DNA of 38,303 bases, taken from positions 1-38,303 of the forward strand of contig JANMZB010000061.1 of the NCBI GenBank assembly GCA_031382725.1, read 5' to 3'. A model generated the notes under the pieces. The model made no database searches. It saw only the letters and a program-made list of their open reading frames with translations, and was not told the DNA's origin. Of the stretch, positions 1,777 through 8,441 are shown piece by piece. Source of the DNA: Sphingobacteriaceae bacterium. Lineage in GTDB: Bacteria; Bacteroidota; Bacteroidia; Sphingobacteriales; Sphingobacteriaceae. Each line of letters begins with the position of its first letter. The first letter of the stretch is position 1. The translations under genes were made by a program, and so were the position numbers.

Positions 1777-2601
1777 ATGGAAAAATCCTATTTAAGTCCA
1801 GAGCAAGTTAATGCCTTCAATAAAGACGGCTATATCATTGTGCCTGGCTTTTTCAATGACGCAGAAGTTGCAAAGCTTTATAAAGTTGCAATTGAAGACG
1901 ATGCTGTAAGCAAAAATTCTTACGACATGGTTGATAAGTCGGGCAGGAAATCGAAACTCGCCTTGTGGTATACCCCTGGAGAAGATACCTACGGCTTGCT
2001 AACCCGTAGCGAACGTATGGTTAAATCCGTGGATCAACTTTTAGACGGAGATTCTGCAGTTTGTCACTTTCATTCTAAATTAATGCAGAAAGAGCCACGT
2101 GTTGGCGGGGCTTGGGAATGGCATCAGGATTATGGCTATTGGTACAAAAATGAATTTTTATTGCCTGACCAGCTTATCTCAGTGATGGTAGCTGTTACTA
2201 AAGCGACCAAAGAAAATGGCTGCCTTCAGGTTATAAAAGGTTCGCACAAAATGGGTCGTATTGAGCATGGCATAACTGGCGAACAAAATGGTGCAGCTCA
2301 ACACTATGTAGACCTATCCCTAAAAACAATGGAACTTGTTTATGTAGAATTAAACCCGGGCGATGCGCTATTCTTCCATAGCAATTTGCTACATCGCTCC
2401 GAGGCAAATCTATCCGACGCACCAAGATGGAGTATGATATCCTGCTATAACAGGCAAGAAAATAAACCATATAATGAGAAATCGTTATCCTGCGTTACCC
2501 CTATTTCGATGGTTCCAAACAAGGCATTGCTTGATACAGATGCCCATGGACTGGTTAGCAGGGATTTCCTGGACAAAGAAAGTGATGTATCCATTAAATA
2601 A
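1777..2601 (+). CDS. PhyH-family Fe(II)/2-oxoglutarate dioxygenase
   Basis: WEWHQD (HxD), ENGCLQVIKGSH, PGDALFFHSNLLHRS (distal His), then PRWS (2OG-binding Arg). Confidence 0.92.
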   Translation: MEKSYLSPEQVNAFNKDGYIIVPGFFNDAEVAKLYKVAIEDDAVSKNSYDMVDKSGRKSKLALWYTPGEDTYGLLTRSERMVKSVDQLLDGDSAVCHFHSKLMQKEPRVGGAWEWHQDYGYWYKNEFLLPDQLISVMVAVTKATKENGCLQVIKGSHKMGRIEHGITGEQNGAAQHYVDLSLKTMELVYVELNPGDALFFHSNLLHRSEANLSDAPRWSMISCYNRQENKPYNEKSLSCVTPISMVPNKALLDTDAHGLVSRDFLDKESDVSIK

Positions 2602-2609
2602 ATAGATAC

Positions 2610-3986
2610 ATGGCAATTATAACGCATTCAACTTCAACAACAGAGCGAAGCAAAGCTCAGGTTAATTACAAATATCTTTATCCAGTTAGTGCTGTGGTGG
2701 CATTGGGCGGGGTTTTATTTGGATTCGACCTTGTAATCATTTCGGGAACGGTCCCTTTCTTTACCAAGTATTTTAATTTGAATGAATATTCAACTGGTTG
2801 GGCCGTGGGAGGCATTAATCTTGGAGCAGCAGCTGGCGCTGTAGCTGCCGGAAAGCTAAGCGATGTGCTGGGAAGAAAAAAGTTGCTCATTTTATGTGCA
2901 TTTCTTTTTGCCGTTACAGGGATAGCAACAGGGTGGGCAGATACATTTACACTTTTTATTATTGCCCGATTATTAAGCGGAGTGGCCGTTGGGGTCGCGG
3001 CTTTGGTTTGCCCAATGTATATCGCAGAAATTGCTCCATCTTCCATTCGTGGGAGATTGGTAACATTGTATCAATTAGCCATTGTAACCGGCCTTTTGCT
3101 TGCATATTTATCTAACTACGCTTTATTAAATACCGGAGTAAATAATTGGCGATGGATGTTTTCTTCCCAAGCTATTCCTTCGCTTTTATTTTTCTTTGGG
3201 CTTTTCTTGGTTCCTGAAAGCCCAAGATGGTTAATCAAAAAGAAGAAAACGGCCGAATCTTTTGAAGTTTTACAAAAGATTGGTGGTAAAGATTATGCCC
3301 AGGATGAAACCGACGATATTGAGTTCAGCCTGAAAAATGAAACCAAAGAACATATTAGAGATTTGTTCAAACCGGATGTAAAACATATCATTTTTATCGG
3401 AATTATGGTTGCGGTCTTTTCACAGGCGGATGGGCAAAACTCGCTATTTTCCTACGCACCGCAAATCTTTGCTCAAGCCGGAATAGCCGAGGATACAGCA
3501 TTTTTGCAATCGGTTATTCTTGGAGCAATCAATTTTATATTCACATTCATCGCTATATTCTCTATTGATAAAATTGGCAGAAAAAAGCTTTTAACCTATG
3601 GTTCGGCACTTTTATGCCTGGATGCCCTAATCCTTGCTTATTGCTTTTACGCCGGGGCGGCATCCTATTGGATATTGATATTTGTTTTGGCATTCATCGC
3701 GATTTATGGCGCAACATTGGGGCCGGTTACTTGGGTCCTATTATCTGAAATTTTTCCTAATCGAATCCGGGGAAATGCAATGGCACTTGCCACTCTATCT
3801 TTATGAATAGCCAACTTTTTCACTACAGCCTCGTTTCCAATACTTAAAGAAAATTTCGGCTTACCTATAACATTTGCCATCCACGCTGGCATCTGCTTCA
3901 TTTACTTCCTGTATGTTCGCACAAGAATTCCAGAAACAAAAGGTAAGTCCTTAGAAGAGATTGAAAAACTATTGGTAAAGCGGTAA
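2610..3986 (+). pseudogene. Sugar porter (SP) family MFS transporter interrupted by an in-frame TGA at 3804-3806
   Basis: SP motifs LFGFD, DVLGRK, PMYIAE, PESPRWL, GPVTWVLLSEIFP. After ATLSL-TGA the frame continues for 59 codons (IANFFTTASFP...IPETKGKSLEEIEKLLVKR) to TAA at 3986, including the conserved PETKG motif. Confidence 0.85.
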
Positions 3987-3995
3987 TTTTTATGC

Positions 3996-4033
3996 AAAAA
4001 AATAGAGCTTCTCGTGTGTAGGAAGCTCTATTT
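3996..4033 (-). terminator. Intrinsic terminator (probably bidirectional)
   Basis: AAATAGAGCTTC (4000-4011) / GAAGCTCTATTT (4022-4033) inverted repeat; the longer U tract is on the minus strand, downstream of the tRNA-like gene. Confidence 0.8.
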
Positions 4034-4063
4034 AAAACTAACCAATAAACATAAATTATGAAA

Positions 4064-4176
4064 GGGCTGTAGGGGAAGGAATCGAACCTCCAAGGAGTGG
4101 TTATCCCGTTACCGGATTCCCAGATTCTCCGCCACCGAGACAAGGAGGTGTGTCTGCCAGTTTCACCACCCTACAG
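4064..4176 (-). ncRNA. Atypical tRNA-like RNA (anticodon GUC/Asp, enlarged 40-nt variable domain)
   Basis: Minus strand folds as (C)TGTAGGG TG GTG-AAACTGGCAGA-CAC A CCTCC-TTGTCTC-GGTGG [40 nt] GGAGG-TTCGATT-CCTTC CCCTACA G CCC. T loop is canonical and the D loop has GG. No encoded CCA. Confidence 0.85.
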
Positions 4177-4208
4177 TTTGGCCTGCTCGTTAAACGAAAT
4201 CAGTAACA

Positions 4209-4239
4209 CAAATGTAAAGCTGGCGACATTACCTTACAA
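4209..4239 (-). promoter_or_regulatory. Housekeeping-sigma promoter of the tRNA-like gene
   Basis: Minus strand TTG (4239-4237), 20-nt spacer, TACATTTG (4216-4209); fits the Bacteroidota -33/-7 consensus. Confidence 0.75.
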
Positions 4240-4465
4240 GTATTTTAAATAAAAACTAGTATTTTTAAAGAAAACGTAATTCTGAAACTTTATTTTAACA
4301 TACTCTTAATAAACACTTCTTATTAGGCATATTATTGCCATTTTATTAATAGACAATACTTCAACCCTTAATAATTGTAACTAGTTTTTGTCATAAAGCC
4401 GTTATATCCTACCATTAATTCCCAGAATCTTATCCAACTAAGTAAATTGCGCCTTTAATCAAAAC

Positions 4466-6322
4466 ATGGCAAAAGTTTCAATTAATATCGCAACAGGTTC
4501 TATTCAAAAAGAAGATATCATTGTGGGTATTGATTTGGGCACCACAAATAGCCTTGTAGCATTTATCAACCCTGAAAATAACGCTCAAGTAATTAATGAT
4601 GCCGGTAAAGGTGTTTTAGTACCCTCAATTGTACACTTTAATATTGATGGAAGTGTAGTTGTTGGAAATGAGGCGAAAGAATTTCTAATCCAGGATCCAC
4701 AAAATACCATCTTTTCTGTAAAAAGATTACTGGGTCGCTCCTACCATGATATCGAAAGTCATAAGGATTTCTTTTCCTACAAAGTAATAGACGACAATAC
4801 AGAGAGACTGGTTAAGATAAAAGTTGGCGATCGCTTCTTTACGCCAATAGAACTTTCGGCGATGATCTTAAAAGAACTAAAAGACCGCGCCGAGCATGCT
4901 TTGAAAACACCGGTAAATCGCGCGGTAATTACAGTACCCGCTTATTTCAACGATAGTCAGCGACAAGCTACACGCGATGCAGGTAAACTTGCCGGTTTAG
5001 ATGTACTTAGAATTGTAAACGAACCTACTGCTGCAAGCCTGGCTTACGGTATCGGGTTAAACCCGGATGAAGAAAAAATTATAGCTGTGTATGACTTGGG
5101 GGGTGGAACGTTTGATGTTTCTATCCTGAAAATACAAAATGGCATTTTTGAAGTGCTTTCTACCAACGGTAATACTTTTTTAGGTGGCGATGATTTTGAC
5201 CGGGTAATAGTTAATTATTGGATCGAGCAGAACAAATTAAACCGGGAAGAAACCGTACAAGATTTTGAACTTATGCAAGGTCTCCGCTTAAAAGCGGAGG
5301 AAGCTAAAAAAGCTTTAAGCACGCAAAATATTTTTAATGGAAATGTCGGACAAATTCCATGTGCCATTACCAGGCAAACGTTTGAAGAATTGATTTTGCC
5401 TAAAGTTGAAGAAACCATTAAAGCTTGCCAGAATGCATTGAATGACGCTGGACTTAGCACTTCGGATATTCACGAAATTGTAATGGTTGGCGGCTCTACA
5501 AGGACACCTCTTGTGAAAAAATCCATTTCGGATTTCTTCGGGAAAGAAGTTCACGATCAAATTAATCCGGATGAAGTAGTGGCATTAGGTGCTGCTATAC
5601 AAGCCGATATTTTGGCCGGAAACCGTAAAGACATTCTCTTACTTGATGTTACCCCGCTCTCACTAGGCATTGAAACGATGGGCGGATTAATGGACGTCAT
5701 TATCCCCCGCAACTCAAAAGTACCAACCAAAGCAGGGAGACAATACACCACATCCATCGACGGACAAGTCAACATGAAAATCTCTGTTTTCCAGGGTGAA
5801 CGTGATCTGGTAAAAGAAAATCGTAAGCTGGCAGAATTTGATCTGAAAGGCATACCTGCAATGCCTGCAGGTTTCCCAAAAGTAGATATCAACTTTCTTT
5901 TAAATGCTGATGGTATTCTAAAAATTCAGGCGGTGGAGTTACGCTCGGGGGTAAAACAGGAGGTTGATATAAAACCAACTTATGGCTTAACAGATCAGGA
6001 AGTTGAAAAAATGCTTTTCGATTCAATCACCCATGCTAAAGAAGACGTATCTCAACGGATGATTATCGAAGCCCGAACAGAAGGAGAACAGATGGTTTAT
6101 ACTGCCGAAAGATTTATTGAAAAAAATAAAGTCTACTTTACAGCTGAAGAAATAAGCCAGACGCAAACCTTTATTCAGTTGCTTAAGGAAACTCTCACTT
6201 CCGGAGATAAAGATTTAATTCATAAAAAGATTGATGAATTAAATGAATTCACACGCCCTTTTGCCGAGCGTTTGATGGATCAGGCCATCGGACATGCGAT
6301 GAAGGGAAAGGCGATAGAATAA
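4466..6322 (+). CDS. hscA: Fe-S assembly Hsp70 chaperone HscA
   Basis: [25 protein letters not shown]; [20 protein letters not shown] and PFAERLMD are HscA-type rather than DnaK-type. Confidence 0.9.
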
Positions 6323-6634: not shown

Positions 6635-7387
6635 TTGTTCGAACTTTTCTCTTATAATCTCAGCTTTAACGATTGGATGCTTATTAGCGTGGTAGCACTC
6701 CTTACCGGGATGTCGAAAACTGGTGTGCATGGTGCAGGGATGCTTTCTGCTCCGTTACTGGCCTTGGTTTTTGGAGGACATAATTCCAGTGGCATTATTC
6801 TGCCAATGTTAATTATAGCTGACACTTTTGGAGTGTGGTATTATCACCGTCATGCCTCATGGAAACATTTAACATTACTATTTCCCTGGGCTATTCTGGG
6901 GATAATTGCCGGAACTTTCGCCGGAACATATATTGATGATAAAGTTTTCAAAATGATTATGGCGATTACCATCTTCGTCAGCATCCCTTTAATGCTTTGG
7001 TTAAAGCTGGGACACAAAGACGATATTCCGAAAACAGGATGGTTCTCGGTGACTACTGGCATTACAGGAGGATTTACTTCGATGGTTGGAAACCTGGCTG
7101 GAACCGTAATGGCTGTATATTTTCTTGCTGCTCGTTTACCTAAAAACGTTTACATTGGCACCACAGCATGGTTTTTTTTAGTGATCAACTGCATGAAAAT
7201 TCCTTTTCATATTTACAGCTGGCATACCATATCTGTTAACGCGGTTCTACTATCTCTAAGTTTACTGCCGATAATTCTTCTGGGCGCAATAACGGGTATC
7301 TATATTATCAAAAGAATCCCGGAGAAATTTTACCGCTCATTTATTATCAGTATGACAGTTCTTGCAGCAATATTTATGCTGTTTTAG
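6635..7387 (+). CDS. TSUP/TauE-SafE family membrane transporter
   Basis: About 8 hydrophobic segments; GMSKTGVHGAG and GGFTSMVGNLAG repeat motifs; TTG start. Confidence 0.85.
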   Translation: MFELFSYNLSFNDWMLISVVALLTGMSKTGVHGAGMLSAPLLALVFGGHNSSGIILPMLIIADTFGVWYYHRHASWKHLTLLFPWAILGIIAGTFAGTYIDDKVFKMIMAITIFVSIPLMLWLKLGHKDDIPKTGWFSVTTGITGGFTSMVGNLAGTVMAVYFLAARLPKNVYIGTTAWFFLVINCMKIPFHIYSWHTISVNAVLLSLSLLPIILLGAITGIYIIKRIPEKFYRSFIISMTVLAAIFMLF

Positions 7388-8441
7388 ACAGCTCTTTCTT
7401 CTTGCGCTCGTTTTTTAAATAGCTTAATAACACTTTCTCATCAACGTTTATTGAGGTATCTGCTGCCGCAGGAAGTATGTTTTTTACTTTTTTGAGATAA
7501 GGATAAAGCGTTCCACTCTCGAACGATTCAATAAGCGGGGGGAATACGTAGTATTTTTTACAAACGGTTCGGGTATTTCCAAGTTTAGATGAAACCTCGT
7601 CGAGCATTGCAACCGTAATTTTTTTACGTTTAGATTCAGAGTCCGTCAATTCATATCCCGAATAAATCCTTAAAGCCTCGAGAGAACCAAACCAGGTTCT
7701 GAAATCTTTTGCTGTAAAATCGCAACAGGTAATTTCTTTAATATAACGATTAATCATTCCTGAATCAATCGACCTGCGATCACCTCCCGGTGTGTAATAT
7801 TGAAAAAGTTCCTGCCCTGGAATATCACGGCACTTTTTTACAAGCTTGGCAAGAATTTTATCATTCAGGTCAATATCATGCATTACGCCTTTCTTTCCCT
7901 TAAAAGACAACTTTATGTTGCTGCCCTCAACTTTTATATGTTTATCCCGTAAGGTACTTAAGCCATAAGAACCGTATAGCTGTTTGTAAGATTCATTGCC
8001 AATCCTGATAAGGGTTTTTTCCATTAAGCTAATTGAAATAGACAAAACTTTACGCTCGTCCATTTCCCTCCTTTTTAAATCTTTTTGAAGGTTTTTCCTG
8101 AATTCTGGGAGCTTCTTGCCAAACTCAAGCAAACGATAAAACTTGTTTTCGTTTCTGGATTTTGCCCAGTCGGTATGATAACGATATTGTTTTCGGCCAG
8201 CCTGATCTATTCCTGTAGCTTGTAAATGAGCATTAGCTTTTGGGGCAATCCAAACATTTTGCCATGCGGGCGGAAGCACCAGTTTTTTTACACGATCTAA
8301 TATTTTACTATCAGAAACTTCTTCGCCTTTCTGATTGAGATATTTAAAACCACTTTTTACCACCTCCCTCGTAATACCAGGACTGGCATCAGTTAAATAA
8401 ATAAGATTGTTCTCTTCGAGCAGGAGTTCGGTATCACTCAT
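7374..8441 (-). CDS. DNA topoisomerase IB (bacterial, poxvirus-like)
   Basis: LPPAWQNVWI, GRKQYRY, IRIGN, FKGKKG, TAKDFRTW, LGNTRTVCKKYYV (catalytic R/K/R/N/Y set). Confidence 0.93.
   Translation of the reverse strand: MSDTELLLEENNLIYLTDASPGITREVVKSGFKYLNQKGEEVSDSKILDRVKKLVLPPAWQNVWIAPKANAHLQATGIDQAGRKQYRYHTDWAKSRNENKFYRLLEFGKKLPEFRKNLQKDLKRREMDERKVLSISISLMEKTLIRIGNESYKQLYGSYGLSTLRDKHIKVEGSNIKLSFKGKKGVMHDIDLNDKILAKLVKKCRDIPGQELFQYYTPGGDRRSIDSGMINRYIKEITCCDFTAKDFRTWFGSLEALRIYSGYELTDSESKRKKITVAMLDEVSSKLGNTRTVCKKYYVFPPLIESFESGTLYPYLKKVKNILPAAADTSINVDEKVLLSYLKNERKKKELSKTA

Follow-up and report, generated by a model that had tools for sequence, protein, structure and literature searches.

The minus strand of the 38,303-nt stretch of Sphingobacteriaceae DNA analysed here (the window, to which all bare coordinates refer) carries a tRNA-like RNA gene with its own promoter, a conserved trailer and an intrinsic terminator, divergent from hscA:

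4209..4239, minus strand: Bacteroidota-type promoter, TTG-N20-TACATTTG (sequence, and enrichment in homologues)
4067..4175, minus strand: tRNA-like RNA body, from U1 = 4175 to the discriminator G73 = 4067 (sequence read and model R1)
4175-4169/4074-4068, minus strand: acceptor of 7 bp, U1:A72 first (read from the sequence)
4169..4175, minus strand: 5' strand of the acceptor, in which U1 pairs with A72 (4068) and G2 with C71, followed by U3
4150..4166, minus strand: Leu-type D arm with a 3-bp stem, A15 and an extra base 20a
4132..4148, minus strand: anticodon arm, loop UU-GUC-UC, with U37 and C38
4092..4131, minus strand: variable-arm domain of 40 nt, with a 4-bp helix, a 4-nt bulge, a 3-bp helix, a GANA/UAA internal loop and a capping hairpin
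4075..4091, minus strand: canonical T arm, in which G49:C65, G50.U64 and A51:U63 are EF-Tu-weak pairs
4037..4050, minus strand: conserved 3' trailer motif (comparison with related loci)
3996..4033, minus strand: intrinsic terminator, hairpin and U tract (folding z = -4.99)
4466..6322, plus strand: hscA, the divergent neighbour of the window copy

The cloverleaf with its 7-bp acceptor, Leu-like D arm and 40-nt variable region, proposed in a preliminary description of the locus, can be read directly on the minus strand, and the body scores 113.6 bits with model R1. The D stem is GUG/CAC (4166-4164/4152-4150) and encloses AAACUGGCAGA; the anticodon triplet GUC occupies 4141-4139 on a CCUCC/GGUGG stem; and the variable arm runs from a closing GGAG/CUCC helix through UGG/CCA to CCG-GUAA-CGG, its GANA/UAA internal loop being what we take to be a UAA/GAN motif. 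C74 lies at 4066 and the gene encodes CCC, not CCA, after G73, and completion of the CCA after transcription is predicted. Taken alone, the 113-nt RNA is no more stable than its shuffles (z = -0.26), so that a single-sequence fold is uninformative and proof of the structure rests on comparison.

The promoter was matched to TAnnTTTG, which we take to be the Bacteroidota consensus. The motif is found at most 120 nt upstream of 101/173 homologues, compared with 13.5 expected from shuffles, and this enrichment, together with the stability of the terminator hairpin, bears out the promoter and terminator assigned earlier; a sigma-70 and strict terminator scan of the window missed both. ARAGORN at default settings called no gene anywhere in the window, and at a lowered score it mis-folded the locus as Pro or as an intron-bearing 'Stop', a call we rejected. 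Rfam 15 returned nothing relevant to the RNA for window positions 2500-6000 at E up to 10, and in the window stretch plus 10 further loci the gathering score was reached only by adjoining true tRNAs, so no covariance model, those for tmRNA, YrlA, T-box and tRNA-Sec included, matched the RNA. Neither of these two checks, both suggested in the preliminary description, thus called the RNA. A normal tRNA-Asp, whose presence had been raised as a further check, lies elsewhere in the genome (G000:C400), as does a normal tRNA-Asn.

The gene had been seen as a stand-alone one-off, a view that no longer holds: a second copy, 93% alike and facing an asnC-like gene, lies at G000:C85, and the window copy is a genus-level paralogue. 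hscA adjoins this paralogue in 7/7 genus relatives, not in the family at large, and a named Pedobacter record (L234) holds an RNA body identical to that of the window. Two aberrant tRNA genes also occur in the same genome, one with an Asp-like body, a longer anticodon region and a Leu call by ARAGORN (G000:C781:1000-1084), the other with an Asn call and a non-canonical loop (G000:C887:674-745).

The 3' trailer motif is possibly a separate small RNA family. Further loci are G000:C825 and C902, L654, L655 and L693-L740: the motif also occurs solitary behind a promoter-like site, it outlives the loss of the tRNA-like body before the terminator, and it was matched in 48 viral contigs; no Rfam match was obtained in 11 loci. 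Elsewhere in the window, a sugar-porter MFS gene (2610-3987, plus strand) has a premature TGA at 3804-3806, its G001 and G003 orthologues being full length; the stop would reflect a strain mutation or an assembly error. A 355-aa ORF at 7374-8441 on the minus strand presumably resembles DNA topoisomerase IB.

A covarying RNA family in Bacteroidota and their phages

Matches to the RNA were found by blastn in 30 of the 61 genomes of the relatives search, own genome included, one match being a genuine tRNA-Leu and another a remnant. With a 27-letter pattern we obtained 123 loci in 3/64 parts of the genome collection and about 2,800 genome stretches overall; the titles that name a taxon are all Bacteroidota, and two say only 'bacterium'. 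The same pattern occurs in 107 viral contigs, and a tRNA or tmRNA lies within 3 kb in 53 of the 80 viral loci with full flanks. Among GenBank phages, one unannotated 636-kb phage holds the RNA (Sinorhizobium matches in this search were set aside as T-arm only), and a plasmid search yielded no copy.

In 61 aligned homologues, 97.8% of the cells in the cloverleaf and arm helices are paired, and 16/27 pairs show two-sided changes, a number above that of all 500 shuffles and all slid controls. The RNA is therefore a conserved, covarying family, apparently undescribed, and the earlier judgement that it is no pseudogene stands on this conservation and covariation. For positional counts we used 175 distinct bacterial copies, defined by the GTC-bearing pattern, with the scored identity positions lying outside that pattern; excluded were one copy truncated at a contig end and those whose fetched stretch contained no T loop. 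The variable arm of these copies ranges from 27 to 131 nt, its first helix (V1) being paired in 174/175 and UAA present in 170/175, and 1+2 unpaired bases flank the V helix, as in a Leu-type core. Long-armed members have an extra covarying helix leading to an invariant GGGUUGACCAC, a motif found in 79/175 bacterial and 81/86 viral copies. Tandem copies are common, with a maximum of five in a row (G013). The U-U mismatch at 29:41 that had been noted in the anticodon stem is real, and it is confined to the lineage of the window RNA.

Several members depart from this scheme. Many phage copies (e.g. L042, L045, L049, L068) have an extra D-loop hairpin and altered T stems, and A51:U63 is kept in only 45/86 viral copies by automatic parse. 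A relative in G265 (L302, G265:C23:55336-55414) is 79 nt long and short-armed, with AUC as its anticodon and with both U1:A72 and G73; this genome is AsnA+, and its asnC faces a different, structured-looking non-coding stretch (L659). In G028 (C10:326884-356102), an RNA gene is the apparent integration site of a 29-kb element, at whose far side the 3' end recurs, and the copy at asnC has an internal deletion.

Identity elements for AspRS, GatCAB and EF-Tu

Among the 175 bacterial copies, G2:C71, G73 and C74 are invariant (175/175 each), U3:A70 is kept in 173/175 and U1:A72 in 174/175 (82/86 in viral copies); G49:C65 and A51:U63 are each present in 175/175, A51:U63 being found in 4/28 tRNAs of the own genome; and A15 is present in 175/175. 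For the anticodon loop we used a loop-free pattern, which gave 120 metagenomic members (122 matches, 2 unrelated) and 86 viral members (87 matches). With the loop unconstrained, U35-C36 and C38 are found in 120/120 metagenomic members and GUC in 86/86 viral members, and the anticodon GUU is absent among the 206. Position 34 is G in 113, A in 4 and C in 3 of the 120, U33 occurs in 93 and a purine 37 in one; U33 with purine 37 is found in 26/28 own tRNAs. Both copies in G189 have UUC, a counter-case. The conclusion that this is not a decoding tRNA survives on these grounds, neither U33 nor purine 37 being kept.

Bacterial Asp identity consists of G73, G34, U35, C36 and C38, with G2:C71 a minor element, and G1:C72 of bacterial tRNA-Asp assists in positioning the 3' end within AspRS (PMC9976931). 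For GatCAB, U1-A72 drives amidation and the anticodon is ignored, a tRNA-Asn bearing the Asp anticodon being amidated only 2-fold less well (PMC1635274). Binding of aspartylated tRNA to EF-Tu is blocked by G49-C65 with A51-U63 (PMC1904265). Scored by Table 2 of PMC3239215, the T stem of the window RNA comes to +2.1 kcal/mol, that of tRNA-Asn to +0.4 and that of the own genome's tRNA-Asp to -1.1; against this last value the T stem is predicted to be weak, at 0.5-2.1 kcal/mol, the combination in the window being non-additive and about 0.4 tighter. Read against these rules, the RNA would combine three sets of codes, for AspRS, for GatCAB and for rejection by EF-Tu, on a tRNA-Leu-like body. G73 excludes a Leu identity despite the Leu-like core. 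The Asp identity on a Leu-type body recognised in the preliminary description is upheld by the conserved G73, G2:C71 and U35-C36-C38 and by A15 and the 1+2 unpaired bases; it had passed over four pointers to function, namely U1:A72, the G49:C65/A51:U63 pairs, the adjoining asnC-like gene and the association with gatB.

An extra D-loop base 20a cuts amidation 10- to 100-fold in the species tested (PMC1635274). This base is present in the window RNA and in 25/25 tRNA-Asn genes of the class, including those of the fusion genomes described below, so that the antideterminant rule may not apply here. The native tRNA-Asn keeps U1:A72 in 23/25 class genes; G1:C72 replaces it in the tRNA-Asn genes of L675 (G315) and L682 (G226).

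Transcription and 5' trimming in relatives

Two soil/rhizosphere metatranscriptomes from two studies contain contigs that cover the RNA body only and leave the flanks bare, with a summed contig depth on the body of up to about 1,000. These data are assembled contigs from relatives, not from the window strain, and the uncovered flanks serve as the control. In X3, two sequence variants start exactly at U1 after adapter and GGG, and the relatives' contigs end between G73 and C75. The RNA of the relatives is transcribed and its 5' end is trimmed to U1, in line with the expressed tRNA mimic proposed earlier, and CCA addition is suggested. The optional eighth acceptor pair (C4176:G4067) was rejected, since the contigs start at U1 and position -1 is C, T, A or G in 91, 55, 28 and 1 of the 175 copies, respectively. 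The variable arm is covered through to the 3' end by contigs with depths of 76 and 200; an intron-containing tRNA was rejected, no joint removing the arm being present in the RNA contigs, and no change at position 36, as expected for C-to-U anticodon editing, is listed in them. The contigs of runs X1, X5, X9 and X13 were shallow or extended into the flanks, and may derive from DNA or from precursor.

An asnC-like gene faces the RNA

Upstream of the RNA, an asnC-like (Lrp/AsnC) gene on the opposite strand faces it in 58/80 named loci, and likewise in 23 of the 28 best model hits. The best PDB match of its product is E. coli AsnC, at 122.8 bits versus 53 for Lrp, and the best NCBIfam match is AsnC, at 179 bits, under the curated cut-off of 227. 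No AsnC was found in 80 viral loci. Neither asnA nor asnB lies beside asnC in the RNA-less genomes examined, and the AsnB genes of three such genomes are not beside it. Among 113 genomes from the phylum's other classes, one (L393, G178:C26) has the asnC-RNA pair, possibly through transfer or as a relic. In E. coli, asnC and asnA are divergently arranged. Expression of asnA is activated by E. coli AsnC, an effect that weakens in the presence of asparagine (PMC8707732).

Distribution follows gatB and opposes asparagine synthetases

The class sample comprises 151 genomes, with G260 counted as gatB+GlnRS- and G318 as gatB-GlnRS+; the 79-nt AUC variant of G265 (AsnA+, not beside asnC) is left out of the 28 carriers. 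In the large searches 21 candidates per genome were scored with model R1, and a rescan of five gatB+ negatives with 150 candidates revealed no missed copy. All 28 carriers have gatB and AsnRS; the RNA is found in 0/37 gatB-less genomes, and its GUC form in 0/21 genomes with AsnA or E. coli-type AsnB. Among genomes in which gatB is not required for Gln, GlnRS being present, the RNA is found in 15/20 gatB+ members, versus 13/94 gatB+GlnRS- genomes. Five gatB+ genomes have AsnA or AsnB, all without GlnRS. In an overlapping phylum sample, in which G099 (a match cut by a contig end) counts as a carrier, the RNA occurs in 15/16 gatB+ and 0/22 gatB- class members and in 1/113 genomes of other classes. 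Carriers and gatB-less non-carriers coexist in five families (f1, f8, f26, f29, f80); the sampled genomes are related, and kinship inflates any P value for the co-occurrence. The own genome has gatB, and gatA in two contig-end pieces; its AsnB-like amidotransferase, in a polysaccharide cluster, is over the TIGR01536 cut-off and under that of asparagine synthase B.

Four of the five RNA-less gatB+GlnRS+ genomes belong to one family and have gatC-gatA-[gatB-aspS fusion] beside a normal AspRS, the fusion protein being 1,105-1,110 aa (L334-L337; G221, G279, G303, G253). The fused AspRS has the His seen in solved Asp/Asn enzymes; in its place the own AspRS has Leu, as do the Asp-only enzymes of E. 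coli and Thermus. We would read the operon as encoding a covalent transamidosome. The fusion was not found in a literature search, and NCBIfam has an AspRS-GatC fusion model only. Two markers that we tried did not separate carriers from non-carriers, namely AspRS residue 31, for which no native enzyme read has His, and the D-loop length of tRNA-Asn.

Losses were also seen. G075 and G034, both gatB- with AsnB (G034 also with AsnA), keep asnC, promoter, trailer and terminator, the RNA body being gone; gatB- G014 holds a decayed remnant; and G011, G032 and G036, RNA-less by blastn, are also without gatB. The apparent lack of AsnRS in four carriers was rejected when a divergent enzyme over the cut-off was found in each; these 504-507-aa proteins (L636-L639), missed by the genome-wide HMM searches, sit at the usual asnS-rpoN position and are likely a replacement from outside. 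The counter-cases are G289, gatB+GlnRS+ with no RNA on a deeper rescan (210 contigs), and G028, gatB+ with a broken RNA. Moreover, 76/151 genomes have gatB and no GlnRS, RNA, AsnA or E. coli-type AsnB, and in 21/37 gatB-less genomes neither synthetase (AsnA, AsnB) was found, so that the pattern does not explain all asparagine supply. Cyclobacterium marinum is tabulated with asnA and asnB (PMC4206432, Table S1); other Cyclobacterium species carry the RNA.

Discussion

Based on these sequence patterns, a role of the RNA with AspRS and GatCAB in asparagine supply, either as a carrier or as a scaffold, appears quite probable. We lean, by a modest degree, towards a dedicated non-ribosomal carrier, which would be charged with Asp, amidated to Asn and unloaded to supply AsnRS, the RNA standing in for AsnA/AsnB; this carrier role would explain the retention of gatB in genomes that have both GlnRS and AsnRS. 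In such a mechanism, the RNA is transcribed and trimmed to its 5' end at U1, as in the relatives, and its CCA would then be completed. AsnC would turn the RNA on at low asparagine, as E. coli AsnC does asnA. By the known identity rules, the cell's single AspRS, with the Leu signature found in discriminating enzymes, would charge the RNA through G73, G2:C71 and (G34)U35-C36-C38. The G49:C65 and A51:U63 pairs would keep the Asp form off EF-Tu, and U1:A72 would permit amidation by GatCAB. The broken anticodon loop and the large arm would stop the RNA from placing Asn at Asp codons; since the loop should not decode, the Asn must leave the RNA. Lastly, and with the least support of all the steps, the Asn ester might be hydrolysed spontaneously or by a factor perhaps bound by the variable domain. 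A fuller account, which we offer tentatively and rate at somewhat below an even chance, is that the RNA replaces an enzyme gene: a Leu body, an Asp anticodon and Asn acceptor and T stems would have evolved into one chimeric molecule that, together with a discriminating synthetase and under AsnC control, acts as a catalytic, reusable carrier in the synthesis of a free amino acid, the arm would recruit or perform the release, and large phages would use the RNA to boost Asn.

The carrier model is weakest on three points, namely release, how the Asn form would avoid EF-Tu and what the arm does. The half-life of free Asn-tRNA is 7 min in the Thermus system, and an Asn-tRNA-Asn that shares the T-stem pairs of the RNA is still bound by EF-Tu, at 270 nM (PMC1904265); by analogy with this tRNA-Asn, binding of the Asn form would shield the ester, against release. 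The replacement of the AspRS-helping G1:C72 by U1:A72 would also count against charging of the carrier. Furthermore, the Leu/His signature is no proof of discrimination, as single bacterial AspRSs can be non-discriminating (PMC4206432), and if the AspRS were non-discriminating, the native tRNA-Asn could do the job of the RNA.

The same co-occurrence fits a scaffold tRNA, which would tether AspRS through GUC to GatCAB through U1:A72, the substrate being native tRNA-Asn on the other AspRS subunit and AsnC switching the scaffold on at Asn shortage. No release step is then required, native tRNA-Asn has U1:A72 in 23/25 genes, the large conserved variable domain is suited to protein binding, and the RNA-less lineage uses a covalent GatB-AspRS fusion that is itself a tether; a non-substrate scaffold tRNA has been described in the Thermus Asn-transamidosome (PMC3367201). 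However, the fusion also supplies a new AspRS of the His type, pointing to an inability of the native enzyme to charge tRNA-Asn. The exceptionless conservation of C74 and of the pairs that repel EF-Tu is best understood if Asp is carried by the RNA itself, and a scaffold tRNA may be impeded by the GAD domain present in bacterial AspRS (PMC3367201). We regard the scaffold as an unlikely, if serious, alternative. We give still less credence to a regulatory mimic: under AsnC control, the RNA would bind or titrate GatCAB, AspRS or some other reader, or signal the state of Asp/Asn charging, without net Asn synthesis. The fixed pairing with a regulator gene, the small-RNA-like 3' trailer that outlives the body and the high contig depth in soil RNA would suit it, yet the exclusion with AsnA/AsnB, the fusion alternative and tandem amplification up to five copies are not readily explained.

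Intact acceptor and T arms could also point to a decoding tRNA, be it one for deliberate mistranslation (Asn at GAY), an unusual tRNA-Asp or a Ser-charged allo-type tRNA. ARAGORN calls the shortest variants tRNA-Asp, phage copies lie among tRNA genes in 53/80 loci, and G73, G2:C71, R4:Y69 and a long arm are marks for SerRS (PMC9976931). This reading is nevertheless very improbable: U33 and purine 37 are not kept, position 34 drifts to A, C or U, arms reach 131 nt, the T stem is predicted to be weak and a normal tRNA-Asp is present; SerRS, moreover, ignores the anticodon, yet U35-C36-C38 is fixed. A decoy for anticodon nucleases or tRNA-targeting toxins, in hosts and phages, turned out to be the weakest of the three functional options of the preliminary description and has equally little to commend it, despite the 107 viral contigs, the 636-kb phage, the multiple copies and the conserved GUC: the neighbour clusters of 80 bacterial and 80 viral loci show no recurrent defence-like gene beside the RNA, the loop is unlike that of a real tRNA-Asp at 33 and 37, and the pattern of gatB, GlnRS, AsnA/B and asnC is not what a decoy predicts. 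As for a decayed tRNA or a mobile or repeat element, to which tandem arrays and the integration-site-like G028 copy could be ascribed, it is scarcely credible in view of the covariation, the invariant identity bases, the fixed synteny and the defined RNA ends, and true decay in gatB-less G014 looks quite different.

Judged by its sequence features, the RNA is not a member of tRNA-Asp, tRNA-Asn, tRNA-Leu or allo-tRNA; most likely, it acts as tRNA-Asn does when it serves as the intermediate in the indirect pathway, except that it does so away from the ribosome. With that tRNA-Asn it shares U1:A72, G73, G49:C65/A51:U63, the tie to gatB and the proposed Asp-to-Asn chemistry at the 3' end, whereas it has GUC in place of GUU, G2:C71, a class II body, a 27-131-nt arm and a non-decoding loop, is separate from the cell's tRNA-Asn, and would yield a product not directly usable at Asn codons. 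Its G73, G2:C71, G34-U35-C36 and C38 are those of bacterial tRNA-Asp(GUC), which differs in having G1:C72 for U1:A72 and G49.U65/G51:C63 for G49:C65/A51:U63, and lacks the weak T stem, U37, variable U33, long arm and Leu-type D arm. The 3-bp D stem, A15:U48, A20a and arm geometry are those of bacterial class II tRNA-Leu, and tRNAs of 85-89 nt cross-match model R1 with scores as high as about 65 bits; unlike tRNA-Leu, the RNA has G73 rather than A73, a multi-helix arm and an Asp-type loop.

The staphylococcal non-proteinogenic tRNA-Gly is likewise a dedicated tRNA kept off EF-Tu by T-stem pairs (PMC1904265, PMC9976931), but with another amino acid, a use in the cell wall, normal size and no amidation. 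The allo-tRNAs and selC* are also odd class II tRNAs, some with GUC, and are also known from phages and metatranscriptomes, but they have an 8/4 or 9/3 acceptor branch and diverse anticodons, in contrast to 7/5 and a fixed NUC here, and come from Clostridia, Proteobacteria and Acidobacteria rather than Bacteroidota (PMC5389517); the string 'Bacteroid' is absent from the main text of PMC5389517 and of PMC7609411. As in the E. coli asnC-asnA unit, an AsnC-like regulator adjoins its presumed target, which is here an RNA gene instead of an enzyme gene. No prior description of the family was found in the open-access literature or Rfam, in keeping with the earlier statement that it matches no named family, and PMC5389517, PMC7609411, PMC8007984 and PMC3927822 do not describe it in their accessible text.

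If the carrier reading is true, the RNA would be a dedicated tRNA for off-ribosome amino-acid biosynthesis and would provide a third route to asparagine besides AsnA/AsnB and non-discriminating AspRS. Bacteroidetes such as Pedobacter heparinus pose a puzzle in that they keep GatCAB alongside AsnRS and GlnRS, with no asparagine synthetase (PMC4206432); the RNA, known here from genomes other than that of P. heparinus, makes this puzzle testable. It also represents a natural tRNA scaffold able to accommodate inserts of at least 100 nt in its arm. The RNA family is abundant, with members in phages and in thousands of genomes from soil and water, and is missed by Rfam and the standard tRNA finders.
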